Positions 1 to 60,200 of a stretch of DNA of 64,000 bases are shown here, piece by piece (position 1 is the first letter of the stretch; each line of letters opens with the position of its first letter). This DNA is from Candidatus Micrarchaeota archaeon. Lineage in GTDB: Archaea; Micrarchaeota; Micrarchaeia; Norongarragalinales; SBBD01. The notes beneath the pieces were generated by a model. The model saw only the letters and a program-made list of their open reading frames with translations, was not told where the DNA came from and ran no database searches. Position numbers and translations under genes: made by a program. The DNA lies in the NCBI GenBank assembly GCA_018819225.1, contig JAHJQN010000004.1, forward strand, positions 194,813 through 258,812, in the 5' to 3' direction.

Positions 1-423
1 TCGATTACTCCTAGTAATAACATCTTTTATCGTTCCCAATCGAACATTTAAATCGGCCTGTTTCCCTTCTCGAATGGCATCTTTGAATGCAATAACTCGC
101 GGATTTTCCATACCGTGATCTCGTAAGTGATCATGAATAGCGGTTAAAACGGAGGACACACGTTCTGACGGAATTCGTGTCAAATGACTTTGTTCTATTT
201 GTAGCAATAGTTGATCTTCAACCATTTTTCCATGAAGGGCGGTCGTAATATCTCTAAAAGTTGCAGATGGAAAAATTTTTCTCATTAGTTTGGTATGCGA
301 CTCTCCATTTCGTCCCAACATTACTATTGGTTCGGTTGGATGCACTATAAAAGTAATGTCTGAAGTCGGGGTCCGAATTAATCGACTGCTTTTCCGAACT
401 ATAATTTCTTCATTCCGATTCAT
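1..423 (-). CDS. hypothetical protein, N-terminal part only (gene continues beyond window start); low-GC
   Basis: Minus-strand reading frame from ATG at 423..421 (MNRNEEIIVRKSSRLIRTP...) runs open to position 1; AT-rich codon usage like neighbouring island genes; no recognisable motif. Confidence 0.4.
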   Translation of the reverse strand, partial: MNRNEEIIVRKSSRLIRTPTSDITFIVHPTEPIVMLGRNGESHTKLMRKIFPSATFRDITTALHGKMVEDQLLLQIEQSHLTRIPSERVSSVLTAIHDHLRDHGMENPRVIAFKDAIREGKQADLNVRLGTIKDVITRSNR

Positions 424-643
424 AATTCCGTTTCTTGTTAAGGGTATTTAAATCAGGCGCTGGGGATGGGAGCAGGAAGAAAAGTTCCGGTCCCTCTCGC
501 AAAAGGAAAGCCCCGGCGGGAACCGACCAAAAAGGTCAAAGCCCTCAATAAAACGACTCGGAAGCGGGAAAAAAAGGCTAAATGAACCTATTCAATAGAT
601 ATACAATAATCAGATCCGCACCATTATTCATTTAAAGCCCTTA

Positions 644-1864
644 ATGAGTATTAAGTTGATGTTAATTGAGCTTCGAATAAAGCCAGGTAAGTTAAAGCTA
701 GTTCGAATGATAAACAAAATTTCTAAAAAATGTCATTTATCAAGTCGAAAAATACACAGAATACCTCACATTACAATATACGGCCCTTTCAAAGGTCGTG
801 GTTCAAATATTCGAAGTATTAATCAGATTTTAGCTCAAATTGGATCAAAATATGGACCATTGGAATTCCAAGTAAAAGGTTTCGAGTGGATGCAGGGCGA
901 GCATGGAAAAGTCATTTACTTCAACATTATACCTTCACCAGATTTAATAAAAATTCAAAAAGAACTTGCGTTTGAATTAAGTACAATTACGCCTAGTAAT
1001 AAAGAATGGGATAAATTTGGAAAATATACATTTCATTCTACTTTAGCATACCGACTAACTGATTCAGAGTTTAAACGCGTTTGGTCTTACGTAAATAGTG
1101 TTCCAAATTTTAAAACTAAAGTATTGAGTTATTTTGGAATTATTAGTCCTGATCGGAAATTTAAAATTAATGATTTTCATTTTCCAATGACTGCGTTCCG
1201 AATTACATTCCTCAACGACTATAGCAAAATCATTTCAGAATATGATTTTGTTACTCATCATATTCTAAATCGTTATGAAGCATTAAACCCAAAAGAATGG
1301 TCTAAAACTTTATGGAAATATCGCATAAATCGCGGAATAGAATTGTCTAACAATATTTCTTCAAAATCCTCTAGCGGACCGTACATAATTAGCGATACTC
1401 ATTTTGGTCATGAAAATATTATCGAGTATTGTATTCGTCCGTTTTCGTCTATTCATGAAATGAATCGAGTACTTATTTCAAATTGGAATCGGATTGTCAA
1501 ACCTAATGATATTGTTTATTTCTTAGGCGATTTATCGTTTGGAAGAAGTAAAAAACCTCCGTCTTATTGGCTAAACCAACTAAATGGAGATATTAGATTT
1601 ATTAGGGGAAACCACGATGACTTAGTTTTGTTAGGGAAAAAACACGAATACATTGATTTTGAAGGGGAAAAAATACTATTAGTACATGATCCAAAAGAAA
1701 AACCAAAAAATTGGAGTGGATGGATTATACACGGTCACAATCATAATAATGATCTTTCACGATATCCTCTGGTAAATAATACGAATAAAACAATCAACGT
1801 TAGCAGTGAACTAATCAATTATTCCCCGATTTCTCTTAAATATTTACTTTCTTTTCGAAAATAG
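644..1864 (+). CDS. 2H phosphoesterase (LigT/2',3'-cyclic phosphodiesterase-like) fused to calcineurin-like metallophosphoesterase
   Basis: N-terminal half has two H-x-T/S-x motifs (HITIYGPF, HSTLAY) typical of 2H phosphoesterases; C-terminal half has MPP motifs DTHFGH, GDLSFGR, GNHDD; AT-rich. Confidence 0.7.
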   Translation: MSIKLMLIELRIKPGKLKLVRMINKISKKCHLSSRKIHRIPHITIYGPFKGRGSNIRSINQILAQIGSKYGPLEFQVKGFEWMQGEHGKVIYFNIIPSPDLIKIQKELAFELSTITPSNKEWDKFGKYTFHSTLAYRLTDSEFKRVWSYVNSVPNFKTKVLSYFGIISPDRKFKINDFHFPMTAFRITFLNDYSKIISEYDFVTHHILNRYEALNPKEWSKTLWKYRINRGIELSNNISSKSSSGPYIISDTHFGHENIIEYCIRPFSSIHEMNRVLISNWNRIVKPNDIVYFLGDLSFGRSKKPPSYWLNQLNGDIRFIRGNHDDLVLLGKKHEYIDFEGEKILLVHDPKEKPKNWSGWIIHGHNHNNDLSRYPLVNNTNKTINVSSELINYSPISLKYLLSFRK

Positions 1865-2138
1865 ACGGTATTCATTCTTCTTTTAAAGAAAATCTATCTA
1901 GCTGCCTTCAATAACAAATCGGTGTATGGGAAGATAATATTCGTCATTCCCATCAACAATCCATAAATTAACGATATAAACTCCTGGCCCATCCGTTAAA
2001 TAATCACCAATTCCTGCTTCGACTTCAAATAAACCCGAAGGATTCGCATTCCATTTTCTTGGATACATGTATCGGGCATCATCTAGAAAATGACCGGGTT
2101 CGATAATTGCGGTTACATAATTATTTTCTAACTTAAAT

Positions 2139-2537
2139 TCACCAGCCGAATTTAATCGGCTTCATAGAAAAACCAAACGGCGATACCCGTTTTCTACGTT
2201 TTTTTCTTTTCATTTTCTTTCTTGGTTTAATCGCTTCTCGGGCATGCCTTTGCATTCGTTGAAACTCAGCCCACGATTTCCTTCCCATGTTCTTGTTACA
2301 TTGATAGCAGAGAACAACCGTGTTCTTAATCGTGGTTTTGCCTCCAGTTGACCAAGCCCGTTTATGTCCAAATTGAGCGGCAGGGTAATCCAATCGTTTT
2401 CGACAATTTTGACATCTTTTTCCTTGTTGAGCCCAAACGATTTGTTTCTGATTCGTCGGAAGTGTTCTTTTGTTATCCCTCCTCGGATCATTAGCCCCCC
2501 ATATCATGCGTTCAAAATTTCGGTTAGTTCCATACAT
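2139..2537 (-). CDS. HNH endonuclease
   Basis: C-x2-C ... H ... N ... C-x2-C arrangement (CQNCRKRLD...HKRAWSTGG...NTVVLCYQCN), basic C-terminal tail. Confidence 0.75.
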   Translation of the reverse strand: MYGTNRNFERMIWGANDPRRDNKRTLPTNQKQIVWAQQGKRCQNCRKRLDYPAAQFGHKRAWSTGGKTTIKNTVVLCYQCNKNMGRKSWAEFQRMQRHAREAIKPRKKMKRKKRRKRVSPFGFSMKPIKFGW

Positions 2538-2563
2538 CTAAATCCCCCATTAAATCTTGATCG

Positions 2564-2860
2564 TTAGAATCTCCAGACTTCATAGCTTCGCTTGTGCTTC
2601 CTATAAGTCTTCCGTTGTAATTTTGAAAGACGTGCTCTACCCGATTTGACTTCTACTAGTTTTTTCTTTTTCCTTCCAGTACGCCAACTACGCTTTGAAA
2701 CCTCGTAGTCAGACCCCCGACCTGTTCTTTTAATACTATAGCCGTGTAGTCCATAACGGGTAATTGCCAGGTCTTCCGCCATCTTGCCTTTTGTTTTATT
2801 TCGAACTAAACGTGTACGTTTTGCTTCTCGCAATAATCCGCCAAGAAGACCCAATTCCAT
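2564..2860 (-). CDS. hypothetical small basic protein
   Basis: 98-aa Lys/Arg-rich ORF co-directional and 27 nt upstream of HNH gene; no motif recognised. Confidence 0.35.
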   Translation of the reverse strand: MELGLLGGLLREAKRTRLVRNKTKGKMAEDLAITRYGLHGYSIKRTGRGSDYEVSKRSWRTGRKKKKLVEVKSGRARLSKLQRKTYRKHKRSYEVWRF

Positions 2861-2979
2861 CTCCTAATGGCAAAGCGTTAAACTCCTTTTTTAAGGCATA
2901 TCCTACAAGAGAGTACAGGGACCTTTTTATTAGAATAAAAATATGAAAATCGATAGTGCACTTTAATAGTTGACGACAA

Positions 2980-3948
2980 ATGGAAGTATATGAAATAATG
3001 TCAACTCCGCCAATAACGGTTAGATTAACGGATAGTGTACATAAAATTCAAAAATTATTTTACAGGCATAAAATTGCTAGTATTTTTGTCGTTGAAAATG
3101 GAAGAGTTGAAGGGCTAGTTACAAGAAAGAACTTTTTTTCAAGTAAACATTTTCTTAGACACAATTCAACTGCAAAAAATGTAATGACAAGAAACGCATA
3201 TACAATTCATTCAACTGCCGGCGTAGATACTGCTTCGGATTTAATGATTCAATATGGTGTCAATAGTCTTGCTGTAATCAGAAGTGGAAAAATTGTAGGG
3301 GTAGTCACCCGATTTGACTTTAATAAACGCAAACGAGAGCATAATCCGCCAACCTACATTCAGTATACGCCAAATCCGCCATCAAACAATAAAAGTTTTG
3401 GTTTTTATATTTTTATAAGCATTATTTTATTGTATCTAGGCTACACTTTTATCTACCCCATTATTGAATTTAGTAATACTAGTTCAATAGAATTTCTAAT
3501 ACACCAAAAAATCAATTATGAACGCGGTAAATACAGACTTCCACATTTAATGTACGATAGTTCATTACAAAGAACTGCAGACAAGCATAGTATAGATATG
3601 GAAGAAAATAATTTCTTCGACCATATTAATAAACAAGGGAAAGATCCCGCTCAAAGACTCTACGAACAAGGATTCTCGTGTTCAAAACAATACGGTAACC
3701 TAATTTATTCAGGCGTTGGCGAAAATATTGCAAAAGAACCAATTTTTAGCCAAAGGGGATTTTTAGCCATTTTTCCATACGTTATTTGGAACGATAAAGA
3801 AAAAATTGCCTCGGCAACAGTGGAAGGATGGATGAAAAGCCCAAGTCATAGAGAAAATATCTTAACTGCTCATTATTCGTCTGAAGGAATTGGTGTTCAT
3901 AGAAGTACTTTTGGAGAGTATTTCTATATAACTCAAAACTTCTGTTAG
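2980..3948 (+). CDS. CBS-pair domain / transmembrane / CAP (SCP, PR-1-like) domain protein
   Basis: Two CBS-like repeats at N-terminus (VVENGRVEGLVTRKNF; VIRSGKIVGVVTRFDF), central hydrophobic helix (FGFYIFISIILLYLGYTFIYPII), C-terminal CAP signature (HRENILTAHYSSEGIGV...GEYFYITQNF). Confidence 0.65.
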   Translation: MEVYEIMSTPPITVRLTDSVHKIQKLFYRHKIASIFVVENGRVEGLVTRKNFFSSKHFLRHNSTAKNVMTRNAYTIHSTAGVDTASDLMIQYGVNSLAVIRSGKIVGVVTRFDFNKRKREHNPPTYIQYTPNPPSNNKSFGFYIFISIILLYLGYTFIYPIIEFSNTSSIEFLIHQKINYERGKYRLPHLMYDSSLQRTADKHSIDMEENNFFDHINKQGKDPAQRLYEQGFSCSKQYGNLIYSGVGENIAKEPIFSQRGFLAIFPYVIWNDKEKIASATVEGWMKSPSHRENILTAHYSSEGIGVHRSTFGEYFYITQNFC

Positions 3949-4032
3949 ACCGTTTTATATTGAGTAGTTAGGGCATTGTGATATCGTGTTCAAACCCGGC
4001 CTGCGGCATAGACAACGGTATACGGAAAAAAG

Positions 4033-5796
4033 CTATTTCGTTGGAATCAATCTCTCCAGATCATGCAAAATATGGGCAACGGATGTCCTCAATTCGTCCA
4101 AAATGTTACTTAACTCCGCGATTGTTACTTCAAGTGTTCCTACCCGTCCTTCAAGATCGGAACTCCCAAAAGGGGTAACCGAAGTGCATCCCTTGCTTTG
4201 TTTCTGAAGCCCCACAAGAGTACACATGTATTCCGTCTGGAACTTATTATTTTTTCCTTCAATGCGACGATGAGTGTAAGCGTTCACACCCGTGCAATAG
4301 AAGTCATAAAACGTGTTGCAAACCTGATTATCGTTAATGATATTATTTCCACTGGATAAAACAATTCCCCTCTCATTTCTGGAAATATCGTTATTCGTAA
4401 TATTAGTATCGGAGGTCACTTCAAGAGCAAGAAATTGATCTCTGAACTTATTACGAAAGATCGTTAGTGTTCCCTCAGAATTACCTAAGTTGGATGCGAT
4501 ACCCACATAATTGTTGTTTATTGTATTGTTCTCAAATAGCGATTGGGAAGCCGAATAATTGTGCCAGTACAGGATGTATCGAATGCCGTACTTGAAGTCT
4601 TGGATGATGCAATTCTTAACTGTTAAATTGCCATGGTGCAAGCTGTCTACTCCGCTGCCGAATCCTGATTCATAACCCGGCCCAGTAATGGAATGACCCT
4701 GACAATCCAAGGTTACGTCGTCTGATCCGATTATGATACAGCTATCGTTGTAGGTATCCACATGCAAGTCTTCTTCCAAGTAAGTGTCTTCGAAAATAAT
4801 ACCGCACGCAGAAGGCTCCGGTTCAGTTTCGTTCTGGGAATTGATTACGAAGTTGTCGAAAACGGAGTCCACGACGCCATCATGGCCGGCAACCGTCTCA
4901 AAAGAAAAAGTGATGGGATACTGATCGGTAAAATCGGTAATAATTGGAGGAGAACCATACACGTGCCACTCATTCGTCTGCGTAATCGTTCCGTTCGGCA
5001 ATATGGTTGTTAAAACGGCGGAAGAGTTACTGAACGAAATGTGGAGCTGGTAGTCTCCCAAATCGTTCCCCAACTGAACTTCCCCGTTCCAATTACCAAC
5101 CCATTTCTCAACCAACGTGCCATCCCTGAGTTTCAAGACCGTGCGAATCAAGCGGTTGCCGGAACCACTCGGGTAATACACGTAATAGGAAAGCTCATTG
5201 CCAGGATAGAATGAATGATTAGTCATAGTCATTCGTGTGCGGGCGTCACGGGCACCAAGCTGGCTGAGCCGATAGTTTTGAGTGAAGTTGTCACGGTAAT
5301 GCAAGTCAACGTGCCCAGACCCAGGCGTGCTTTCGTTCCATAACAGGTTCGTAGCCACTTCGTTGGAAAAGTCGTCGTATAACTGCTCGCCTTCATCTAG
5401 AACTGGAAGAGTCGTAAAGTTCTGGTTAGATGAATTAAGACAACCGAATTCATTGCAGTTCATTGTCATGACGTGATAAGTCGTGTTCGGCTCAAGGTCA
5501 TCGGAAATATTGAAGAAAAATGTTTGATTATAAGGAATACCTGCCCTGTAGTAAGAATACGTGTAATTATTCCAACCGCTACCCTCACCACTTCCAACAA
5601 AAAGAGTTGAATTAGCTGGCTGGTTAGTATACCAAGCAAACCACGCACTCGAACTCGTAATAAAGTAGACAGACAAATTGATCAGTGCAGGCGGTTCCGA
5701 AGGAATGGAAGGCGCTGACCCGAAATCATCTCCAGAAACGTAAGGAAAACTCGCCGCTAAACACAGAATCAATGCCCAAAAGCTAAAACGGTTCAT
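4033..5796 (-). CDS. secreted right-handed beta-helix repeat surface protein with many N-glycosylation sequons
   Basis: Signal peptide MNRFSFWALILCLAASFPYVSG (start chosen at internal Met, codon 5796..5794); parallel beta-helix-like repeats (NNTINNNYVGIASN, NITNNDISRNERGIVLSSGNNIINDN); >25 N-x-S/T sequons. Confidence 0.7.
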   Translation of the reverse strand: MNRFSFWALILCLAASFPYVSGDDFGSAPSIPSEPPALINLSVYFITSSSAWFAWYTNQPANSTLFVGSGEGSGWNNYTYSYYRAGIPYNQTFFFNISDDLEPNTTYHVMTMNCNEFGCLNSSNQNFTTLPVLDEGEQLYDDFSNEVATNLLWNESTPGSGHVDLHYRDNFTQNYRLSQLGARDARTRMTMTNHSFYPGNELSYYVYYPSGSGNRLIRTVLKLRDGTLVEKWVGNWNGEVQLGNDLGDYQLHISFSNSSAVLTTILPNGTITQTNEWHVYGSPPIITDFTDQYPITFSFETVAGHDGVVDSVFDNFVINSQNETEPEPSACGIIFEDTYLEEDLHVDTYNDSCIIIGSDDVTLDCQGHSITGPGYESGFGSGVDSLHHGNLTVKNCIIQDFKYGIRYILYWHNYSASQSLFENNTINNNYVGIASNLGNSEGTLTIFRNKFRDQFLALEVTSDTNITNNDISRNERGIVLSSGNNIINDNQVCNTFYDFYCTGVNAYTHRRIEGKNNKFQTEYMCTLVGLQKQSKGCTSVTPFGSSDLEGRVGTLEVTIAELSNILDELRTSVAHILHDLERLIPTK

Positions 5797-6044
5797 GTAA
5801 CTACACCCCCTATTGGCTACGGACAAACAACATTTTTTAAGGAGTGGCTTTGGTCGATTTCGGTTTGTTCGAGCGCATAACGATTTCAAAGAGGCGAATC
5901 TCGTCGATGGCCAAATAGAGCAGGGCTTAAATAGGGGTTTGCGGTCAGGGCAAGCGGGTGCGAGGCCAAAAGCCAGCCGGAACCGGCTTGGGATAGTAGA
6001 TTATGAGGGAATTATGGCGGGGGGCTTCGCTACCGTGGGCTGAA

Positions 6045-6174
6045 AGCCCCCGGCGAGAATCGAACTCGCGACCTCCTGTTTTCTCGCTCTTGCTTTTTTG
6101 GTCGAGCTTTTCTTAAAGAAAAGGTCGGGTGGCAAGGTTACGAGACAGGCGCTCTTCCGCTGAGCTACGGAGGC
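6045..6174 (-). tRNA. tRNA-Thr(CGU) with ~57-nt intron at canonical 37/38 position
   Basis: Reverse complement reads GCCTCCG-TA-GCTCAGCGGAAGAGC-G-CCTGT-CTCGTA[intron]A-ACAGG-AGGTC-GCGAGTTCGATTCTCGC-CGGGGGC-T; acceptor, D, anticodon and T arms all pair; intron 3' region (GCAAGAGCGAG) pairs with anticodon-loop/exon (CTCG..CTTGC) as expected for BHB. Confidence 0.75.
6098..6129. repeat. palindromic T-rich hairpin motif copy 1 (TTGGTCGAGCTTTTCTT-AA-AGAAAAGGTCGGG), inside tRNA-Thr intron
   Basis: 8-9 bp stem CTTTTCTT/AAGAAAAG; same motif recurs at 6204-6240, 7584-7622, 7842-7882. Confidence 0.6.
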
Positions 6175-6203
6175 ATAAATGTTTTTTCAAATGCCCATTT
6201 CAT

Positions 6204-6240
6204 TTGGCGGAGCTTTTCTTTATAAAAGAAAAGGTCCGCG
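6204..6240. repeat. palindromic T-rich hairpin motif copy 2 (TTGGCGGAGCTTTTCTTTATAAAAGAAAAGGTCCGCG)
   Basis: Perfect 9-bp stem CTTTTCTTT/AAAGAAAAG extended by GCGGAC/GCTCCGC; lies between tRNA-Thr and a 21-nt partial copy of its 5' end. Confidence 0.6.
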
Positions 6241-6244
6241 CTTC

Positions 6245-6265
6245 CTTCCGCTGAGCTACGGAGGC
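6245..6265 (-). repeat. 21-nt partial duplicate of tRNA-Thr 5' end (acceptor + D-stem/loop)
   Basis: cttccgctgagctacggaggc identical to 6154-6174. Confidence 0.7.
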
Positions 6266-6520: not shown

Positions 6521-7105
6521 ATGCCACACAAATGCGTCAAATGCGGAAAATTGTATCCGAACATGGCGCCAGAGCTCATGAAAGGCTGCGAATGCACGTC
6601 CCGCATCTTCTTGTTCTTGCGCGAAAGCCAAGTCAGCGTCAAGGAGACCATGGAGTTGCTGCAGGAAGAGAGCCAGAAGCTCGTGGAAGACACGAAAGCC
6701 ATTCAAGAACTCGCCGAAGCCACGCCCATCACCATAGAAAAAATCGAGCTGCCTTCCGTACCCGTCAAGTCCATGGTGGAACAACAGGACGTGCACGGCA
6801 AGCCCCACGTCATTCGAGTACAAGAAAAGAAGGATCCTGAAAAAGCCGTGGATGAAATCGAGGAAGCGGACATGGAATCCGATCAAGAAGATGACACGGA
6901 CGGGCTCGTGGACGGGGACATGGAGAAAACCGTTTTACCCGTTGACGCGGACGGAGAACCCGTTGAAAACATCACCATCCTGGAAAAGGGATCGTACGAG
7001 CTCAACATCGAGTCACTCATGGCGGGTAACCCGCTCGTCATCCGAACCGAACGCGGAATATTCTACATACGCATTCCGACGCCCGTCAACCAAAGGAATC
7101 GGTAA
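6521..7105 (+). CDS. Zn-ribbon domain protein with acidic C-terminal region
   Basis: N-terminal C-x2-C ... C-x-C (HKCVKCGKLY...GCEC), acidic low-complexity middle; ends overlapping next gene start (ATGG). Confidence 0.5.
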   Translation: MPHKCVKCGKLYPNMAPELMKGCECTSRIFLFLRESQVSVKETMELLQEESQKLVEDTKAIQELAEATPITIEKIELPSVPVKSMVEQQDVHGKPHVIRVQEKKDPEKAVDEIEEADMESDQEDDTDGLVDGDMEKTVLPVDADGEPVENITILEKGSYELNIESLMAGNPLVIRTERGIFYIRIPTPVNQRNR

Positions 7106-7433: not shown

Positions 7434-7557
7434 GGGCCCGTAAGAGAAACCATCTCCGGGACGCTCAGCTTGGATAGAGCGATTGCCTCCTAATCACTCG
7501 CGGATTGCAAGTGGAGGGGAAAGCAATAGGTCGTGGGTTCGAATCCCACCGGGCCCG
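7434..7557 (+). tRNA. tRNA-Arg(CCU) with ~29-nt anticodon-loop intron and an unusual 20-nt insert between acceptor 5' strand and D stem
   Basis: GGGCCCG...[20 nt]...GCTC-AGCTTGGATA-GAGC-G-ATTGC-CTCCTA[intron]A-GCAAT-AGGTC-GTGGGTTCGAATCCCAC-CGGGCCC-G; acceptor strands complementary; canonical T loop. Confidence 0.6.
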
Positions 7558-7673: not shown

Positions 7674-7790
7674 GCGGAGGTCGCATAGTGGCTATTGCGG
7701 CAGCCTGCTATCTTTTTGCAGCGAAGGCTGCGGAAGGTTGGAAAGCTGTTGGCGCTTCGCGCCTCGTGGGTTCGAGTCCCACCCTCCGCG
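7674..7790 (+). tRNA. tRNA-Ser(GCU), class II with long variable arm and ~16-nt intron
   Basis: GCGGAGG-TC-GCAT-AGTGGCTA-TTGC-G-GCAGC-CTGCTA[intron]G-GCTGC-variable arm (GGCGC-TTC-GCGCC)-GTGGGTTCGAGTCCCAC-CCTCCGC-G. Confidence 0.75.
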
Positions 7791-7943: not shown

Positions 7944-8882
7944 ATGAATTTCCGAAACGTATTGTATTTCATTGCGTTGATTGCCCTTGCGTACGCATTG
8001 CTCAAGATTTTTCAAGCCGAGCAGGCGCTCCCGAAACTCGATGCATTCATCGCGGCAGGCGCTATAGTCAGTTACTTGATCAGCATCGTGCTATGGAACG
8101 AAGCATGGGGCCAGTATTTGAAAATTGATTTTTGGAAAAGCAATACCATTGGATGGAGCGCGCAGTTCGCGGCATTGACGCCGTTAAGCATCGGAAACGA
8201 CGTATTGAGAGGTTATTTCGCGAAACAGCACGGCCACCGGTTTTCCGCAGGGATGGCGGCGAGCCTGGCCACCAAGTTTTATAAGATTGCGTTGGCACTC
8301 GTTTTTTCAGCTGCGGGTATCGCGTTATTGTTTTTGCGAAATGAAGAACTCCAGCAATGGATTGGATTAGGCGTCGTCGTACCGGTACTGCTGTTGCTGG
8401 GGCTATACGTTATCACGAAGGAAGGCTTCGCGGGAATCGTCAACAAGATCACGTTCAACCGTATCGCGAAAGGGCGTATGATCGAGTTCTCCGGCAAAAT
8501 GAAGTATTACGTTCACGCTCCATCGGGAAGCGTCTTGCTGATATTAATCACTTCACTCGCGTTCGAATTTCTGGCGTTCTACCTGTGTTTCCAGGCGTTC
8601 GGCGTGTTCTTGGAACCGTTCACCGCCTATTTGGCTTACGCGCTATTGTTCTTTTTGTCGAAAATTCCGTTGCTGCCGCAAGGCATCGTCATAACGGAGA
8701 TAGCGGGCGTCATGATTTTGAGGAGTGTCGCCGCGTTACCACTGGTGGCAGCAGGAATCCTGTTATGGAACGTTTCACGCGTGTGGGTTCCAGTCGTCAT
8801 GAGCTTTCTCGTTCTATCGTTATCAAAGCAAAAGTTGCCGGACTCCAACGAAATGAGGAAATGGGAGACCGAACGCCATTAA
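7944..8882 (+). CDS. polytopic membrane protein, UPF0104 / lysyl-phosphatidylglycerol-synthase-TM (flippase-like) family candidate
   Basis: ~8 hydrophobic helices, no soluble domain; family assignment by overall pattern only. Confidence 0.5.
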   Translation: MNFRNVLYFIALIALAYALLKIFQAEQALPKLDAFIAAGAIVSYLISIVLWNEAWGQYLKIDFWKSNTIGWSAQFAALTPLSIGNDVLRGYFAKQHGHRFSAGMAASLATKFYKIALALVFSAAGIALLFLRNEELQQWIGLGVVVPVLLLLGLYVITKEGFAGIVNKITFNRIAKGRMIEFSGKMKYYVHAPSGSVLLILITSLAFEFLAFYLCFQAFGVFLEPFTAYLAYALLFFLSKIPLLPQGIVITEIAGVMILRSVAALPLVAAGILLWNVSRVWVPVVMSFLVLSLSKQKLPDSNEMRKWETERH

Positions 8883-9523
8883 GCATCCGCAGCAGCGGCT
8901 TGAGCGAGGCGTTGCTTGGTGAGCTTCAAGGCGAAAAAGCGTTCGGATTCCAAGCGGTTCAAGTGATCGGAAATCGATTTGATCGTTGCTTTCAGTCGGG
9001 GCTGCACGTTGAATTCCAAGGCATTGACTTTGCGATTCGTGATCTCGATTTCCTTCAACAAACGTTTGAGAGCGGTTTCAAATTCGGCGAGCTTGATGAT
9101 GAGATTCAACGATTTTTCGAAGTGTTCGACGGCTTCATCGAATTTCGCGGAAGACCCTTGAAGACTGTAACCGCGGGAAAGCAAGTCCTTCGAGACATCG
9201 ACTCCGCGAATCTCGGCAATGCGCACGCCCATGATGTTCTTGGGTTTGACCTCGATTTCAGGCACTTTCTTGGAAGAAAGTGCAGCGGTTTCCACGAACA
9301 AATCGCCGTGGAACGCGCGGGCAATGGCGAGTGAACGAAAAGAAGATTTCAATTCACCATCGACTTCAGAACGCAGGTTCTTGGCTTTCTTTACCACTTG
9401 AAAGAACTCCAAAACAAGCGCATCACGTTTTTGTTTTAAAAGTTTGTGGCCTTTCGAGGCGAGAATAAGGCGTTGTTTCGTGTTCAACATTTCCATTCGA
9501 GTGGGCCTGACGCCTTCCACCAT
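8879..9523 (-). CDS. atpD: A/V-type ATP synthase subunit D
   Basis: N-terminal PTRMEMLNTKQRLILASKGHKLLKQKRDAL matches the conserved V-ATPase D start (PTRMELL..K.RL..A.KGHKLLK.KRD.L); coiled-coil, ~214 aa. Confidence 0.8.
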   Translation of the reverse strand: MVEGVRPTRMEMLNTKQRLILASKGHKLLKQKRDALVLEFFQVVKKAKNLRSEVDGELKSSFRSLAIARAFHGDLFVETAALSSKKVPEIEVKPKNIMGVRIAEIRGVDVSKDLLSRGYSLQGSSAKFDEAVEHFEKSLNLIIKLAEFETALKRLLKEIEITNRKVNALEFNVQPRLKATIKSISDHLNRLESERFFALKLTKQRLAQAAAADA

Positions 9524-51201: not shown

Positions 51202-54200
51202 TCATGGTTCAATGGGAACTCCTGCGGATTGTCGCAGGGTGTTCAATGCTTCAGGATACTTCGTATCATCAAACTGTTTTTGCGCCACAGGAATCGCGTC
51301 TTCCACAGCCTGCGGGCATCCATCGTTGATACACCATTCGCGGAAACGCTTTAATAAAGCCTCCACTGCCTCTTTCGGCGATGCTGGAACCAAAGTCACT
51401 GCGTTCGTAACCGTTGCACCCGTGACCGTCGTGAAAACAGGTGAACGGAAGTCCAGTGGATCCGAGTAAGAATGAACAAGAGAAGGATCGGGAACAAACG
51501 AAGAGGCAACAGGAACATTAGGATCAAACATCGACGTAATGAAATAATCAGGGGACACTCCTTTGTTGAAAGAGGTCACTAAATTGTATTGAGGAATTCC
51601 GGCCAAAACCGTTCCTTCAGTAAGATAAAGGCACGCGTGTTCGGAATCCGGACACAATTCTTCCGTGTCCACCCGGTTCGCGCATTCATTCAAATCCTTT
51701 TCATTGCGGAAACAGTATTCTTTCATGGAAGCGGCTTGGCCTTCCTCATTATGGTATACGACGAGATGGTTCCCGAAACGGTAATCCAATTCAGCGCGCA
51801 CGGGACGCACTTCCGTGTAAAACAGCAAGGGCGCAACCAGTGATCCTATCAAGCTGATACCCCGGAAACTTTTCTTTGTAAACGACGACTCCTTAACTGC
51901 GTTCCCAACGGAGCGGAAACGTCCGGAGCGGGAACGAACCGCATCGAAATCATCGGCAAGCGTTTTGGATGCTTGTTCAACGGCATCGTCGAATTTAGTC
52001 AGGGTTCTAGCTTTCGTGGCGCGATCGCGTACGTGCTCAATGATTGCGCGTTCTTCCGTATTTGTCAATGCGCCACCCAAAGCATTCCGCAGTTTACCGT
52101 TCAATGAAGTGCGAACAAATCTGCCACTTCCGCCTTTGATTTCATTGACGGCCACTTCATCGTAATTGCGCAATACGTTTGCAAGTTCGTCGGGGGTGAG
52201 AATGCGTCTGAAATCGAGGTCAATAGGTCCTGCAGTTTGAGAATATAATTTCCATAATTCATCCGACACCGCTGACGGTCGGGCATCGCTCCTAAGGAAA
52301 GCAGATAACGTTTCCGATTTTCCATATAAATTATAATTTGGAGGCAGACGATTATTAATTAATTCATCCACTACTTTTTCTCGTATATTTGGATCCCTAT
52401 CAAGGGCGGTGAATAAACTTCTAATCTTGGTATTGAATTGATCTTGCGTCGGGGCTATTGTCCGAGATACGTCGGTGAGTTCATTATAGAGCGTCGTACG
52501 AGTTCCGGGTGCGGTAAGATCCACCCAGGCATTCATTCGCGCCCGTCCGTCCGCTCCAGAAAGGAGTTGAGTGAAATCATTGACGCTGCTTCTTGGCACA
52601 AGAGCAGTTTCTCCCGGGGTATGAATCAAGTTGACGAGCGCACGAGAAATCGTTGAGGAACTAATCGTGCCGCCGGCTGTTTGGGTATAACGAGTGACCA
52701 AAGCGTCCGCGAATTCAAGCGACATGCCTTGGTGCATGAAGTAATCGGTCATAAACGCTCGGCTGCCGAACGGACGGAATACTTTGGAAGCGCCCGCCAC
52801 AATGGGAACCGTAGCAGGAGTAATACCTGGTGCGAACTCGCTATCTAGGACCGTATTCGAGCCTCCGAGAATGGCACTTAATGCACCAGTAACCGCCAAA
52901 TTACCGATCAATTCATTACCTCCTCGACGTGCCACCTGACTGGCAAATGTACTAGAGAGTAAGCCGCTGGCTCCAGTTATTGAATTGACTCCAGGAACAG
53001 CACCGGTTGGAAGAACCAAGTTAAGATAGAAATCAGTTAGAGCAAATGTTTGGAACGAAATACATGCATTGATTCCTTCGCATATTCCGACGCGTGAAGG
53101 CGCAAGGGAATCAACGGCAATGGATGCGGTACAACCCGTGATTCCGGTAACCAAGCTGTAAACGCCCTGCGCAAGACGAGGGGCGAATACGGGAGCGGCA
53201 AAAATGCTTCCGACAATTGCGACTAATGCGCCCGGAGCACCAGCTAATAATAATGCACCGGTTGCTTTTCCTCCGTTTTCAATGCAGGCACCCGTATCTT
53301 CGAATGGAACCGCCTGTGATAAGGGGTAATCGTTGTATCCGTAAAGGGTGTTCAACAGCAAATCGGCGTGCCGTTCATCATCCGCGCTGGGCGCTTCGCG
53401 GTATGGACCAATAGAGAATATGCGGAATTTTTCAAAAAATCCAGTATCCCCTTCCCGTTTCTTATTGGTCCAAATAATGTGCGGATTCGGTTCTCTTCCA
53501 ATGATGACTTCCGGCGTGTCCGCGGTCAACAGGTTCGTGTTGTACAATTTTTCCTCGCATGCAAGAAAACGAGTTGGAGAAGGCAAAGAGCTGTCCACAT
53601 GCATTTCAATGAATGAAGATTTCAACCACTCCTCCTTATTAGGTCGTAGCTCACATAGACCCAGGCGCGCAGTTGCAATGTAAATACCGCATTGATCGGC
53701 AGTACCCGTTGCAGTATATTTGATTGATTTCTTGCCGCCGACAAAACCGAATTCACCTAAACCTTCTTGGAAAGCGGTTTGAAGATCGTTCAAATTGATT
53801 TTCGTGTTCGCCATTTGAACGACAACGCTTTTACGGTAATCGCGGTTGAATGCGCGAACAACGGGATCGGATGGATTGCAGAACTTATTGAGCTCTTCAT
53901 TGAATTTTTCGTCTTCTTGTGTATAGAAGGTTGTTATGAGTTGAGCCACTTGTGCTCCGAATCCCTTGAAAGCTGCTTTCGCCTCATCTGCAGTGCAGAA
54001 GTTTGTGGAACAGGGTATGACCGCGTCAGCCACTCGAATAATCCCTGACGGAACAACAGAAACTGGAGTGGTTGGAGCACTTGCAGGCGGAACAGATGGT
54101 GCAGAATGTGCCGGCACTGCTGGTGCGGGTGTTCCCGGGGGCACACCACTCGCAGGCGTTAATGATGGAGGCATAGCGGGTGGATCGCGGAGTATAAGAT

Positions 54201-57200
54201 CCCCAAGCGGTGTGCCGGAAAAGAGGTTTTTCATAGCAGGGTTCGCGGGATCGATTTCATACGATTCAACATTTACGAACTTGGAGTCCGTTTTTCCGTT
54301 GATGGATCCTTTGAACTTGATCTCCATGTATCCACTCCACGGGCGCAGAGACTCGCATTCTGAAATATAGCCTTCTCCGGCACGCAACGAAGTGGGAATG
54401 TCGCATCGTAAGAAACCGGTTCCGTTAGCGGAATAGGTTTGATAGTTAAGCGTCACCGACTCATCGAGATTGTTGGCCATGGAAATCCATCGCTTGTGAC
54501 CCAAATCCTTGAACACCAGTTTTTGGGGCGCCGTGGTTTTCACGTTTTGTTGCGAGCGGTCATAATTTACGTAGAAACCACCCAGCGCGTCTCGAAGTTG
54601 AGCGCGAAGAGAGCCTACGCACGAACCGGTTTTCTCGAAGGTGAGAATCAGTTTAGCGGGAACGAATTGCGCGCCGCTTCCCCGGTAATCATAAAATATT
54701 TTGACGTCGCCTTCCAAGGGACCGAGTTCATCCAACTTCTCTTGAGGCAACAAACAGCCATCATCATCCGTATACTGTTGAGGTACTTGAACCGAGAACA
54801 AGAATTGCTGCACCTGGCAAGCCGCATCCTCATTCTTATCCTGTTGGGCTTTACCCGCCAGAATCATGTGCGCGCCTTCATCCCAAGCGCTGGGTTTGCG
54901 AATCTTTCGAATCACGCCCTCCAACTCGGAACTAATGGACTCGCCAGAAAGCGCGTTACGGCTTTCCGCAGTCCAGCTCTTCTCGTCCTCATCACCGGAA
55001 ATATCCATGTAAACGCTTACTTCCGAAGGAGCGTCATTCAATACGCAGAATCCTTTCTCCACGATTCCTTCCACGTTCGAATCCGTGAACTCAAAGGTTT
55101 GCTCCTTGGGCTTGATGCGAATGGGCACGAAATTATCGGTAATCATGGCGAAGCCATCCGGATTGCGGGATGGACGCTCGCATAAAATCAAGGTAGTCTT
55201 CGAATCGGCGGGAACGGAGATCTGCTGGGGTTCGTCCTTCTCTTTCGGAAACGGATTCATGTCAGAGAACCAAATCTCTTTCACTTGAGGCAATTGATAA
55301 CTCGTTTCGCCGCGGACATTGATTTGTATTTCGCGGCACCCCTGCAAGTCAACGCGTTTCGTCATGCTATGGATTTCCGTGCTCACCTCCGGCGCGTCCT
55401 CAGGCAATAAGTATACGACGTCATCCGTGAACGTGGCGTGGAACTTGTATTTCTTGTCCGTATCCTGGCAGATGCGCGTCACGAACCGCGTGTCGACCGG
55501 AATGGAGAACGTGACCGCGTCTTCCGTTTCATCCGCTTTTTCGACGTCATCCGCCATCAAACGCATGCCATTGAATTCAAACAAATCATTCTCCGCGTTG
55601 TCTTCCATTGCGAGCTCCGTGCAAATGCTCAAGCGGTAAGACTGCATGATGTCGCCATTCTTTTCGAACGGTTCCTCAAGGAACTTGTCGAATGTTTCTT
55701 GCGGAACATTCACGTCCACATCATTCGGGAAGTGATGAAAAACAAAGTCAACGCCTTGCAAGCCCGCAAGGTCCTCATCGATCATGACGAACGTGATGGG
55801 AACATTGCGTTCCACGAACAAATCCTTGTACGGTTCAGCGGCTTGCAATACCGGTCGGAAGGGAAGCTCAACGTTGTAACTGTACGTCGTAACCGCGTTC
55901 TTGACCACGCGGGCGTTCACCGGAAAGTGCAAGACGACATCCTGCGGGAACGTGACCGTAAAGCGGTCCTCCCCGAAGCGTTGTTCCTCTTCCTGTAACA
56001 TGCTGTAATCGAATACGATGGACACGGATGGCGGTACTTTGAGGTCGCGGCGTTCGCCGAATTCCTCATCTTCAATCGAAGCGCCTTTGACGAGCATGCG
56101 TTGGTTGGACGGGAATTCTAACAGATGGCGGTCATCCTTTACGCTATAGCGCGCGTTGACGTTGAACGGCAACGTCATGTCGAAACCGACTGGCAAGCGC
56201 TTTTCATTACCCGTCATGCCAAAGTCAGGGCGACCGAAAATAATTTGAGTGAGAGGCATGACTTCGACCGTCCGGGAACCGTCCGGCGCTTTCAAGCCCG
56301 CACGAGCGACTCCGTTCAAGAAACTCATTTCCAGGTAATCCGTGGAAATGCTTTTCGCGCGCACGCCATCCGGAGCAATATTCAAGGATACTTCAGGGCC
56401 GTCGCGTACCAAGAATAGGACGCGGAAAGGCAGGCTCAGAACGATCTCGCCGTTATAGGTTCGTAATGCGAACGGCGATGGAATGCGCAAGGCACTACCG
56501 GCTGGAATCGTGACGCGTTTGAAATCACGCGCGTCCATTGAAATAATGGCATCGGAAGGCAACGAAATCGTGTTTCCGCTTTGGAATTGAAGGGCTTTTC
56601 CTCCGCTAAAACTGTCTTTCTTGACGCGAATGAATTCCTCGATGATGAACGTGGCTTCAACGGGGAACTCGACTTCTAAAGCGTCTTGAGAGGAAATGAT
56701 GGGCGTCAACGAAATCTGAATGGGTTGGTGCGCGTTGACGCGGACGCGGCGTTCTTCACCCGAATAGGGGCGATATTGAGTGGAACTCGTCGGGTACTTG
56801 ATGTCGAAATCGTTGATGGAAGCCGTTTCAAAAGCCCCTTCGCGAGCAAACTCGGTTTCCGTTGGGAAATCGAGGTATACGACGACGGGCAAGCGGAGTT
56901 CCCAACCGTATTGCATGAAGTTGCGCTGGTAAGGCGATAGGTAACTACGGTACGTATTGTAACCTTGCACGGGAATGCGTCGCGCATAGCGGGCGGGAAC
57001 TTCAAAGAAAGCGCCGGAAGGAATGACGGCCACTAGACTGCCGCCTCCTTGCTCGATGGAAAACGTGAAGGTGCTCGAGTAAGGCGAGGATTGTTGCAAA
57101 TCGTTGAGATCTCCCACGCGAACGTCTGCATCAAACAGCATGGTGTCCCCGCTCGGAAGCTCAATGAAAGTCGAGCCATCCGGATTAGTATGCGTAAGCG

Positions 57201-60200
57201 TATTGGGAGGCAATTGCAAGACGATTTGCATGGGAAGCGATATGCGCACGCCTCCACTCACGCTTTTCACTTCGGGTTCGACGGCTTGGCAAGTGTGATC
57301 AATGGCGGCCTCGCTTTCTCCGCATTCGAGGAACTCGCACACTCCCGAAGAACAGATTTCATCATTGGAACATTCATCATCGGCAACACAGCCGGGTTCA
57401 GGGGTCGGAGTGAACGTGACTCCTGCCGGATAGATTTCCACGCGAGTGGAAAGGCAAGCGAGATTGCCGGCTTGTGCGCGAACCTCGTAACGACCCTTCG
57501 AACTGTAGTAACAGGAGGCCGTGCAGCTACCCGTGGTTCCCGTGCAACTCACGGCATTGGATGTGCGGCCGTTACCGCAATTTACGACAACGACGTTTGG
57601 GGCGCGATTCAAGTCATAATAGTCAACAGTAATGGTACTCGTCCCTTCTTCCTCAATGCGGTTCGGATCCGCATTTAATGCACAAGTGGGTACTAACGGA
57701 GTGGGAACCGGAGTCGGCGTCACGAATTCCGTTGGTTCGGGAGTTGACGTCGGATCCTCATCGCCCGCATGCACGTCCCTGCAATTTTCGGATGAAGACG
57801 CGGTATACGTAAGTCCGACGCGCTTGCGGGACGTGATTCCGAGCGTGCTCGCGTAAAGCGTTAATGTACCGTCGCGTTCATCGTCCTCTAGATCGCACGG
57901 ATCCACGGGATACGCGCGCGCCACCACCTTAAATTCCGCTGAATCCCCTGCGGCAATGGTTTGCGAAAGCGGTTCCATGTATACGTTGGAGAGCGTGCTC
58001 TGGTAATTGATGAGAATGGGATAATCGGCGTCGTTGGTAACGACCATGGTTTGCGTGTCACGGGGTTCGCGAGGCGGTTTCAAGGTAAACTGCAGGGAAT
58101 CAGCTGAAGCAGACCACAACGCCTCCAAGTCCTGTTGGGTAAACGAAGAGGCGATCGTGAACGGAACGGATTCCTCTTGGTCGTAGCTGCCCAAGCGAGC
58201 TCGTACGAGGAGGCGGCCGGAAACGGTTTCGGATAGAGTGTTCGCACGAGCTGCAACGGGCAAAATAGTATCGAGAATGCGGGCTCGCAAATTGATGGAT
58301 TGGGTATCGCGCGCTTTCAAACGGAAGGAGGAAAGGTCGACGGATACGTCCGTATACTGGGGGTTGCGTCCAAACTGCATTTGAACGGAAACGCGTACTT
58401 CATTATCCAATAGGTTAGTGACGCTGAAACCTTGTTCTTGATTGTCGGTCGAATCAACGGTTAATGACAAGGTTTCCCCTTCCACGGAAATGAGTTCATC
58501 GCCAGTGACGCGCAGGAAACCGCGTTTGACCTTAAAGCCTTCGGCCTCGACCTGGTAGGTGACGGTCCCGATCGCGACGGGGTGAATGCCTTCCACGCGG
58601 TACTGGGCACTGCCATCCCGACCCTCGGAAAAAACGCCTTCAATGATGGCGCCGCGGAGGGCATCATTCCCGTTTCCAACGGATACGTAGGCATGAGAAA
58701 CCGGCAGCCCCAATGAATCTTCGACGGCAAACGTCACCATGTTGTCTTGAAGTGCTTGCAATGAAGACGGACGATTCGTCACTTTGAGATCGGGTTTGGT
58801 GCCGACCACGCGGACGTACAGCGAACGAGTGATCACGGTTTCCGCGTTGCGTACTTGAAGCTGCAATGCCACGTCATTCGAGAGACGCTGGGCTTGAATC
58901 AAGAACTGGCCTTCCGCATTGTCTTCAGAAGTCGTAATAGTGATCAGTTCCTGATCGCCTGCGGAACGCGCCACCGCGCGACTTCCACCGGATGAACCTT
59001 CCGTTAACGTGATCGATTCGTCGAGAGCAGATGAAGAAAGCTCGACCACGGTTCCTCTTGGAGCCGCTACGTGGAATTGAAGCGAAAAGGTTTCGCGAAT
59101 TTCCGCCTCATAATTATCCAAAGCGCGCCCATTTTGTCCTTCGAAGAAGTAATCCAAACAAAGATCGTCTTCACATAATCCACCAAATGAAATGGGTGCG
59201 GTAATCGTTTTCATGTTCGCGAGAATGGAAGATGTCGAAGCGGTTTCGTCGAGGGGATCGCGAAGGGTTTCGCGCGCGGTGTCGAAAGCCGAACGGTATT
59301 GCAACATAGCCGTTCCATCGGAAACCGCTTTGGTTCGCACAAACACCGCGATTTCCTTCGTGCCTTCAAACGGTTGGAACGTGAAATGAACGTATTTATA
59401 CGCGGGCTGGAATTCCGGATCCGCGAACTCCAATTCCTCCGCAGGCGTCGGGGAAGGCGTTTCCGTAGGGACATCCGTAACGATAACGGGGGACAAATCG
59501 TATAACGTTCCTTTTGTGACGAAAGCCGTGCCGGCTTCGTAACCAACGATTTCAACGAGCTCGTTATCCAGCGAAGAATCCGCTGAACCGACGCGCACGT
59601 GAACTTCAGCCCTTGAAACGTCGACATTGGGGCGAGTCAACAAGAATTTGGCTTTGTAAACCGTTGAAGGCGATAACGAAGAGGCTTTGTTGCTCTTCAA
59701 ATCATACAATCCCTGGAAAACGATTTGCGATCCTCGGGCGCCGGAAGGCAGCAGTTCAAACGAATCCCGATTCGTGATCCCGGGAATGACTTCAAATTCA
59801 GACGATAGCAAGGTTTCATACCCTTCCAGGGAAACGCGAGCAACATAAAACCCTTCCAAGATATCCACCGCGCATTTACCGCGTTCCGTGACGCACGAAT
59901 CCTCTTTAATAAACGTTCCGCCGGAAAACGATAATTCAACGAGGGCACCATCCAGAGATTGATTCGTAAAGTAATCATAAACGGAGACGACGAGCTTGGC
60001 TTTTCCGGGCTGCAAGATCACTTCAATCAAGTTGACTTCAGGTTCTTCCCCGGTTCCGTCAATCGAAATCAATTCCGGATTACTTTTTCCTTCCCGGCCC
60101 GCGAAACTGGCTTTGACAAAAATGCGTTCCAACGGAACATCGGGAAAATCAGCGGATCCATCGGCGGACGTGAACTTTTCGGAGATGCCCATGGGTTTCC

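Follow-up and report, generated by a model that had tools for sequence, protein, structure and literature searches.

The window analysed here, a stretch of 64,000 nucleotides (nt) from a Candidatus Micrarchaeota genome, begins with a bounded, AT-rich islet of about 4.2-4.7 kb. The islet carries the gene of a 2H phosphoesterase fused to a calcineurin-like metallophosphoesterase (MPP), the genes of two small predicted nucleases (one VRR-NUC-like, the other of the HNH type), the gene of a sensor-like membrane protein with CBS and CAP domains, and small open reading frames (ORFs). It is probable (we put the odds at about 65%) that this block is a small patch of flexible genome, built by several independent horizontal acquisitions of stand-alone accessory genes, which AT-rich donors would have supplied separately. 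We favour such a patchwork because of the contexts of the genes, their alternating orientation, the two GC classes among them and the lack of a recurrent partner gene. As a genomic feature the islet is ordinary, a small flexible-genome islet of an already known kind, and as a well-delimited case it illustrates how genes recently flowed into a reduced genome of the DPANN group, beside the conserved core of tRNA, OapC and V-ATPase genes. A sequence-only reading of the same DNA had already proposed horizontal acquisition, which is supported by the extreme local composition and codon-position signal, by the absence of the islet genes from the one informative relative (L010) and by the islets in which the fusion gene is found in two other loci (L132 and L140).

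Composition and borders of the islet

The GC content is 35.7% at positions 1-4000, compared with 50.4 +/- 1.3% in the other 4-kb windows (minimum 47.6%), and the by-eye estimate of the sequence-only reading, that the first ~4 kb is AT-rich relative to the rest, was accurate. Windows of 500 nt have 31-35% GC between 500 and 2000 and between 2750 and 3750, and 41-42% in the stretches 1-500 and 2000-2750; towards the right they rise from about 40% at 3750-4750 to about 50% from about 5750, and they stay within 47-55% in the remaining ~58 kb of the window. The signal is located at synonymous sites. The GC content of third codon positions (GC3) is 24% for the fusion gene, 25% for the CBS-CAP gene, 28% for orf56, 29% for orf149, 34% for the VRR-NUC-like gene and 38% for the HNH gene, while it is 48% for the surface-protein gene that follows and 57-70% for core genes (OapC, BofA, AtpA/B/D and TatD). 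The tetranucleotide distance to the background reaches z = 8.8-18 in 1.5-kb windows from -356 to 4643 (positions below 1 lie left of the window), is still z ~6 for 3644-5643, and is at background level from ~4644; all other windows in the 64 kb have a z of 3 or less. The sliding-window GC and tetranucleotide check that had been suggested along with the sequence-only reading therefore finds a composition that is not uniform and a single outlier, with z up to 18, in the 64 kb. It is confirmed that the compositional island is real and far beyond chance.

The parent contig, to which we refer as L001, is a metagenome contig of 709 kb in ENA, on which window position x corresponds to x+9357. Its GC content is 50-55% up to ~9250, which places the left border ~100 nt outside the window, where orf149 has its 3' end. 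On the right side the composition changes stepwise at 3950-4030, in front of a gene (4033-5889, minus strand) that encodes a secreted parallel-beta-helix surface protein of 618 residues (587 as called) with a match to the para_beta_helix repeat. A break at this gene boundary had been noted before; the step is indeed there, but low values continue through 4033-4540, the 3' third of the surface-protein gene, and the gene is better described as a transition zone, its GC3 being 38-46% where the C-terminal third is encoded, 53-59% for the middle of the protein and 39-41% for the N-terminus. Since the left border lies just outside the window, the whole islet measures ~4.2-4.7 kb and extends from about -100 to about 4000-4600, mostly within the window. 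It combines the deviant composition (GC, codon position and k-mers) and the definable borders by which a genomic island is recognized.

Within these borders the islet is a mosaic: two blocks of 31-33% GC, made up of the fusion gene and the CBS-CAP gene, are separated by a block of 42% GC that holds the VRR-NUC-like and HNH genes. The successive genes, including the surface-protein gene, lie on the minus, plus, minus, minus, minus, plus and minus strands. The gene content given by the sequence-only reading (the 2H/MPP fusion, the HNH endonuclease, the CBS/TM/CAP protein, with TM for transmembrane, and the partial ORF at the left edge) was reproduced in full.

The source being a metagenomic contig, and its left junction being covered by one assembly only, the islet could in principle be an assembly chimera, i.e. 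DNA of a low-GC organism misjoined into a contig of 50% GC. We regard this as very improbable. A Logan assembly of another run contains a contig (L183) that is 100% identical over 7.3 kb, from inside orf149 across the right border into OapC/BofA, and that represents an independent assembly across this border. The borders lie in intergenic DNA, and the transition within the surface-protein gene is graded, without an abrupt break inside the gene. The CBS-CAP protein is moreover found under NCBI, JGI and GEM sources for a Micrarchaeota metagenome-assembled genome (MAG). The Logan contig does not represent an independent lineage, because it is 100% identical and hence derives from the same strain; its use as a second strain showing conservation was dropped for that reason.

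The 2H-MPP fusion and its genomic contexts

The fusion gene (644-1864, plus strand, 31% GC) encodes a protein of 406 residues that belongs to two superfamilies. Its N-terminal half is a 2H phosphoesterase of the LigT/YjcG-like type (PF13563, 2e-15, 57.5 bits against a cutoff of 27). Its C-terminal half is a calcineurin-like metallophosphoesterase of the Aq_1665 / phrog_547 type, which matches phrog_547 at 1.8e-42, PF12850 at 6e-6 (26.8 bits, just below the cutoff of 27) and the structure of Aq_1665 (PDB 1xm7; Foldseek E 8e-8, TM-score 0.66). Alignment with 20 homologues shows the two 2H motifs (H42-I-T and H131-S-T) to be intact, with invariant histidines, and the metal-binding motifs of the MPP half (DTHFGH, GDLSF, GNHDD, VHDP and HGHNH) to be conserved. 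The AlphaFold2 (AF2) model has a predicted local distance difference test (pLDDT) score of 84.7. Foldseek relates its MPP half to Aq_1665 and to the Vps29-type small MPPs, and its 2H half to YjcG (2d4g), archaeal LigT-like proteins, E. coli LigT, the plant cyclic phosphodiesterase (CPDase) and Usb1. The TM-score of the model is 0.57-0.71 to YjcG/LigT versus 0.41-0.42 to the poxvirus phosphodiesterase (PDE) that acts on cGAMP. The protein ends ~20 residues short of the conserved C-terminal tail of its family (consensus ...SIKRMDTIDSxPxR), and 33 nt separate its stop codon from the next gene.

The intact motifs and folds suggest that the 2H domain would open either a 2',3'-cyclic phosphate or some other phosphodiester of the cyclic or 2'-5' kind, and that the MPP domain would then remove the resulting phosphomonoester. 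As judged from the sequence and the model, the fusion most plausibly works in two steps on one substrate, and it may represent a "cleaner" of RNA 3'-ends or of nucleotide signals on a single polypeptide. On these grounds it is a predicted end-healing phosphoesterase of the kind expected in RNA repair. The healing of RNA ends uses separate CPDase and phosphatase activities (PMC4201822, PMC2190708). With the LigT/YjcG 2H CPDases and the MPP domain of Clostridium thermocellum Pnkp (PMC2190708; PMC4201822) the fusion shares both HxT motifs and the full dinuclear MPP motif set, and like the known end-healing enzymes it could convert a 2',3'-cyclic phosphate to a 2'- or 3'-phosphate and then to a hydroxyl. 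It differs from them in that both activities would reside on one polypeptide, that a kinase or ligase domain is absent and that a ligase gene is not found nearby, and from Pnkp in that its MPP half falls in the small Aq_1665 / phrog_547 clade and not in the lambda-phosphatase/Pnkp clade.

An alternative role, suggested by analogy, would be the destruction of nucleotide immune signals, as performed by the 2H enzyme Acb1 of phages (PMC9117128). The fusion resembles such viral 2H PDEs (Acb1, PMC9117128; poxvirus cGAMP PDE) in its 2H fold, in its location on compositionally foreign DNA and in having conflict-system genes as neighbours in some genomes. Its model is closer to YjcG/LigT than to the poxvirus enzyme, though, and a CBASS or type III CRISPR context was not seen here. 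Within the library of papers that was searched, none describes a 2H-MPP fusion, and no biochemistry for the family was found.

The family is large, with at least 359 matches of the same ~410-residue architecture, and taxonomically patchy; the names of its source organisms include Micrarchaeota, Methanoregulaceae, Methanocella arvoryzae and Chloroflexi/Dehalococcoidia. Apart from itself, the window protein has its best match at 52% identity. To see in which company the fusion travels we collected 83 fusion-bearing loci (647 kb in total), 77 of which are distinct. A tblastn search of these 83 loci with the other islet proteins returned CAP matches only, and no homologue of the VRR-NUC-like protein, orf149, orf56 or the surface protein. 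In the distinct loci, 150 small ORFs no more than 2.5 kb away from the fusion were scanned with Pfam; they gave 116 families, the commonest being LemA (4) and NUDIX (3), and HNH was not one of the families with matches in at least two of these ORFs. An HNH gene was seen as a neighbour in one locus (L140). No recurrent partner gene of the fusion was thus found among the 77 distinct loci.

In four of the 83 loci the vicinity of the fusion includes a gene for a membrane protein with an extracellular CAP domain; three of these loci are independent, one being a duplicate (L176/L177). The two neighbours of each pair are found at 30-1052 / 1049-2221 in L170, 439-1569 / 2152-3405 in L177 and 8001-9269 / 10789-12225 in L139. 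In L170 and L177 the CAP membrane protein carries an N-terminal AN1-like zinc finger in place of the CBS domains, and in L170 the stop codon of the CAP gene overlaps the start codon of the fusion.

The sequence-only reading had put forward that the block might be a defence or RNA-repair cassette. In a single co-functional unit of this kind the nucleases would attack the nucleic acid of an invader or of the cell itself, the 2H-MPP protein would heal RNA ends or silence a nucleotide signal, and the CBS-CAP protein would perhaps exert control. Several observations fit such a unit. Every enzyme predicted in the islet would target nucleic-acid phosphodiesters. Two of the three closest homologues of the fusion are encoded among genes for Fic, Imm5-like, AbiE, restriction-modification and transposase proteins (the third is found among housekeeping genes). 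In L140 the fusion is accompanied by ImmA/IrrE-DUF4411 and by an HNH gene in the same convergent arrangement, and CAP membrane proteins are found near it in L139, L170 and L176/L177. Yet the partners do not recur: the HNH gene does so in only 1 of the 77 distinct loci and the VRR-NUC-like gene, orf149 and orf56 in none, while the closest relatives of the CAP domain lack a nearby 2H-MPP gene. Genes for an RNA ligase, 5'-kinase, Hen1 or RtcA/B are absent from 21 kb of L001, and ligases and kinases are not among the most frequent neighbour families in the 77 loci. PADLOC returned only weak single-domain matches (REase_II, 2e-6, and the C-terminus of TmtA, 3e-6), limited to the HNH protein and the VRR-NUC-like nuclease, and nothing for the six other proteins scanned. 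Taken together with the alternating orientations and at least two compositional classes of the genes, this makes a cassette improbable, and this part of the sequence-only reading was not supported.

In other genomes, too, the fusion is repeatedly found in foreign-looking DNA. Where the flanks are long enough (40 loci), the GC content of its gene is lower than that of its surroundings by 4.3 points on average. Two unrelated genomes carry it in two-sided islets. In L132 (4300-6600) it forms a two-sided islet of nearly a single gene, with 37% GC within a genome of 60-63% GC. In L140 (4371-8210) a two-sided islet of ~3.5 kb and ~40% GC lies between purP and purA and contains ImmA/IrrE-HTH, DUF4411, the fusion and the convergent HNH gene. 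The generalization that the fusion is always located in low-GC islands was rejected: L107, L121, L139 and L141 share long syntenic low-GC neighbourhoods that have a single high-GC flank, and they are ambiguous because the high-GC side may be the insert. The MPP half alone is common in phages and haloarchaeal megaplasmids, whereas the full fusion is not among the best 80 IMG/VR matches, which cover the MPP domain alone.

These islets bring up the thought that the fusion is a roving, self-sufficient conflict enzyme that moves as a low-GC islet between archaea (Micrarchaeota and methanogens) and Chloroflexi. It may then act in repair, healing RNA ends that RNase toxins have left behind, or degrade immune signals made of cyclic or 2'-5' oligonucleotides, and it may travel as an islet of one or a few genes that in some lineages is coupled to a membrane-bound CAP-domain sensor. 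The window may contain one such islet, with the nuclease pair inserted alongside. We consider this unlikely as an account of the block, and prefer the patchwork of separately acquired genes. Whichever applies, the 2H-MPP family is large, uncharacterized and repeatedly present in foreign-looking DNA, and it merits biochemical attention.

The nuclease pair and the other genes of the islet

The gene at 2564-2860 (minus strand, 42% GC) encodes a protein of 98 residues that had been described as a small basic protein. The gene call stands, but its identity could be sharpened: it is probably a minimal PD-(D/E)xK nuclease of the VRR-NUC/Hjc type and as such the second predicted nuclease of the islet. 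The protein contains E29, D51 and E70-x-K72 followed by LSxLQ, and G25, E29, G49, D51, E70, K72, S79 and Q82 are invariant in 37 family members, which means that both the PD-(D/E)xK signature and the LSxxQ motif of VRR-NUC are present in the family. The Pfam match to VRR_NUC (9e-4, 19.7 bits) is below the curated cutoff of 23.8. The AF2 model (pLDDT 92.8) has an alpha-beta-beta-beta-alpha-beta core, and its best PDB matches in Foldseek are mostly PD-(D/E)xK nucleases or the related tRNA-splicing endonuclease (SPARDA DREN, VRR_NUC 4qbn, Hjc 4tkd, FAN1 and EcoRV among them), all with E >= 0.01. A word-index homologue search returned only the protein itself, and a sequence-profile search of the PDB gave nothing informative. 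A full HMMER search uncovered an unannotated family of proteins of ~90-150 residues with 208 representatives, chiefly in DPANN and marine MAGs; the nearest relatives are from Woesearchaeota and marine MAGs. These VRR-NUC-like nucleases of ~100 residues likewise merit biochemical attention.

The HNH (ββα-Me) endonuclease gene (2139-2537, minus strand, 42% GC) is located 26 nt downstream of the mini-nuclease gene on the same strand. Its product of 132 residues matches HNH (PF01844, 7e-9; 36.1 bits, cutoff 21.4, with positions 1-45 of the 47-position profile aligned), HNH_5 (3e-7) and Endonuclease_7 (1e-5), as well as 20 PHROG HNH families, and the residues CQNC...GH...N...CYQC, with two CxxC pairs, can be read from it. 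The sole match in a phage database is to a Nitrosopumilaceae spindle-shaped virus (29% identity). The annotation of this gene differs between sources: the ENA gene call at L001 11567-11848 (window 2210-2491, minus strand) is a 93-residue ORF in the wrong frame that overlaps the real gene, while the call on the identical Logan sequence (L183, 1827-2225) has the correct frame. At its C-terminus the HNH protein has a strongly basic tail (...KPIKFGW), and K/S/G-rich tails whose last residue is W or F are found in many members of the mini-nuclease family; these ends may be an interaction or targeting motif that the two have in common.

Both proteins are predicted to be DNA nucleases such as viruses and selfish elements carry. 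The mini-nuclease shares with the VRR-NUC/Hjc enzymes the E...D...ExK and LSxLQ motifs and, in its model, the arrangement of the core, differing from VRR-NUC in its score below the Pfam threshold and in belonging to an unannotated family. The HNH protein has the CxxC pairs of phage HNH enzymes (T4 endonuclease VII-like). The two nucleases are small, basic and adjacent, as in many recombination or homing modules of phages, but unlike homing nucleases the pair lacks a homing target or an intein or intron context. The VRR-NUC-like and HNH genes, possibly with orf56, likely form a minus-strand unit of two or three genes. Its GC content of 42%, compared with 31-33% in the neighbouring genes, suggests that the nuclease pair was inserted between them.

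The CBS-TM-CAP protein (2980-3948, plus strand; 322 residues, 33% GC) consists of a cytoplasmic CBS pair, one transmembrane helix (residues ~139-165) and an external CAP/SCP/YkwD domain. Both domains score well above their Pfam cutoffs (CBS 6e-24, 84.5 bits against 24; CAP 2e-15, 58.1 bits against 21.1). Only one further protein with CBS and CAP domains was found among the 120 best matches. The closest CAP domains (43-50% identity) occur in an arrangement of arginine decarboxylase, CAP and TIM on Acidobacteria-named contigs, where the surroundings are core-like, and a 2H-MPP fusion is not found near them on those contigs. We expect this membrane protein to be a stand-alone accessory gene product.

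The affinities of the islet genes differ from one another: those of the CAP domain are to Acidobacteria-named contigs, those of the mini-nuclease to Woesearchaeota and marine MAGs, those of the MPP domain taken alone to phages and haloarchaeal megaplasmids, and the HNH protein has a weak match in a thaumarchaeal virus.

The two remaining genes lack recognizable relatives. The leftmost low-GC gene, orf149 (window 1-423, full gene L001 9331-9780, minus strand; 149 residues, 40% GC), starts inside the window, with its final nine codons left of position 1, and has no match in Pfam, PHROGs, PADLOC, NCBIfam, phage or plasmid databases, or IMG/VR. orf56 (1898-2068, minus strand; 56 residues), with which the run of VRR-NUC, HNH and orf56 on the minus strand ends, is without a detected family in Pfam, PHROGs and NCBIfam. 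In the spacer of 46% GC between orf149 and the fusion gene a very basic ORF of 39 codons (MGAGRKVPVPLAKGKPRREPTKK...; 466-585, plus strand) is present, the coding status of which is doubtful and for which relatives were not detected either. Two copies of CCCGGCGGGAACCG bracket orf149, one of them inside this 39-codon ORF. This 14-mer occurs once in the window (0.05 expected by chance), and the similarity past the core is weak.

Insertion site and route of entry

The nearest matches of AtpD are from MAGs named Candidatus Micrarchaeota (63-80% identity). The gene order TatD-AtpD-LPG synthase-tRNAs-BofA-OapC is common to the related loci L008 and L010, and an intron-containing tRNA follows OapC both in this genome and in L010. 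This is a tRNA-Thr (6045-6174, minus strand; anticodon CGU as read from the sequence, intron of ~58 nt, Rfam 54.2 bits), which adjoins OapC in L010 as well. Past the tRNA-Thr, L010 encodes a 395-residue unknown protein, a MacB/FtsX permease, a GNAT protein and an arginase-family enzyme, none of which has a counterpart in 73 kb of this genome; conversely, the islet genes are not found at the corresponding site of L010. The unrelated genes past the tRNA-Thr in L010 indicate that conserved synteny ends at this tRNA and that the islet is located in a variable stretch. This stretch would start right past the tRNA-Thr and also hold large surface, RHS-type and unknown proteins. In 15 related loci the islet genes, the surface protein, a 1356-residue protein and an RHS protein have no counterpart, apart from L012, where the surface protein has a weak match through its beta-helix. 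The comparison of synteny with relatives that had been proposed earlier is in keeping with acquisition, L010 being the only relative long enough at this site and a distant one (AtpD 78% identical, 61% GC).

The two large genes left of the islet have a host-like GC content. The 1356-residue protein, without a Pfam match, is encoded at L001 5053-9123 (plus strand), and the YD/RHS-repeat protein, of more than 1853 residues, at L001 1-4776 (minus strand).

The position of the islet invites the idea of a decayed virus or plasmid that integrated at the tRNA-Thr and of which the integrase and structural genes are now gone. The block is located ~2 kb downstream of the 3' end of the tRNA-Thr, and a duplicated 5' fragment of this tRNA is present beside the gene and not in L010. 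The HNH, VRR-NUC and phrog_547-type phosphoesterase genes are typical of phages and mobile elements, and a weak direct repeat of 14 nt surrounds orf149. An integrase, capsid, terminase or replication gene was not found, though, and the 3' end of the tRNA is not repeated at the far border. The islet and the tRNA fragment lie on opposite sides of the tRNA, and between tRNA and islet there is a surface-protein gene of host-like to intermediate composition. When IMG/VR was scanned with the HNH protein, the mini-nuclease (as single sequence and as alignment) and orf149, no close relatives were returned, while the fusion was matched by its MPP domain only, and the GC heterogeneity inside the islet argues for several sources. 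Such a remnant therefore appears a doubtful explanation, and the accumulation of independently acquired genes the better one.

Two candidate traces of integration were discarded: for the tRNA-Thr 3' end as att site, no further copy was detected in L001 when as many as three mismatches were allowed, and the 14-nt repeat around orf149 does not extend. The partial tRNA-Thr duplicate (6203-6265, minus strand) lies 91 nt upstream of the intact gene, on the side of the tRNA opposite to the islet. It starts like the tRNA, with which it shares the first 21 nt, and continues in a hairpin that resembles the intron hairpin. The duplicate folds better than shuffled sequences do (z = -4.0) and is found, among the fetched loci, in this genome only. 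It is possibly the scar of a past rearrangement or integration.

The islet shares with the known tRNA-linked genomic islands a sharp block of deviant GC, codon usage and k-mers, a content of accessory genes including nucleases, a location near a tRNA and the absence from a relative. It is unlike them in being only ~4.5 kb long, in lacking an integrase, a transposase and flanking direct repeats, in not being directly beside the tRNA and in being internally mosaic.

Several observations weigh against an origin of the islet by repeated horizontal acquisition. L010 is distant, and rearrangement without horizontal gene transfer could also account for the difference in synteny. Only one assembly runs across the left junction, as L183 crosses the right one only. 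Among all ORFs from the 1356-residue protein to the tRNA-Thr, Pfam, PHROG and NCBIfam searches revealed no integrase, transposase or other mobility gene, and no att-type flanking repeat or target duplication was found at the islet. The nearest homologue of every islet gene is at most 53% identical, so that no donor can be named. Finally, some functional tie between the fusion and the CAP protein is conceivable, since their association, although rare (3 of 77 loci), is recurrent.

Some features of the surrounding DNA may be added. All three tRNA genes detected with Rfam (6045-6174, 7458-7557 and 7674-7790) carry long insertions or introns, giving total lengths of 100-130 nt, and ARAGORN reported no tRNA in the whole window. 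At the far end of the window an ORF of 3453 residues is found (51202-61563, minus strand). The cumulative GC skew has its minimum at window ~4700-5100, just left of the OapC gene (6521-7105). As OapC is associated with replication origins, an origin may be located within a few kb of the islet.

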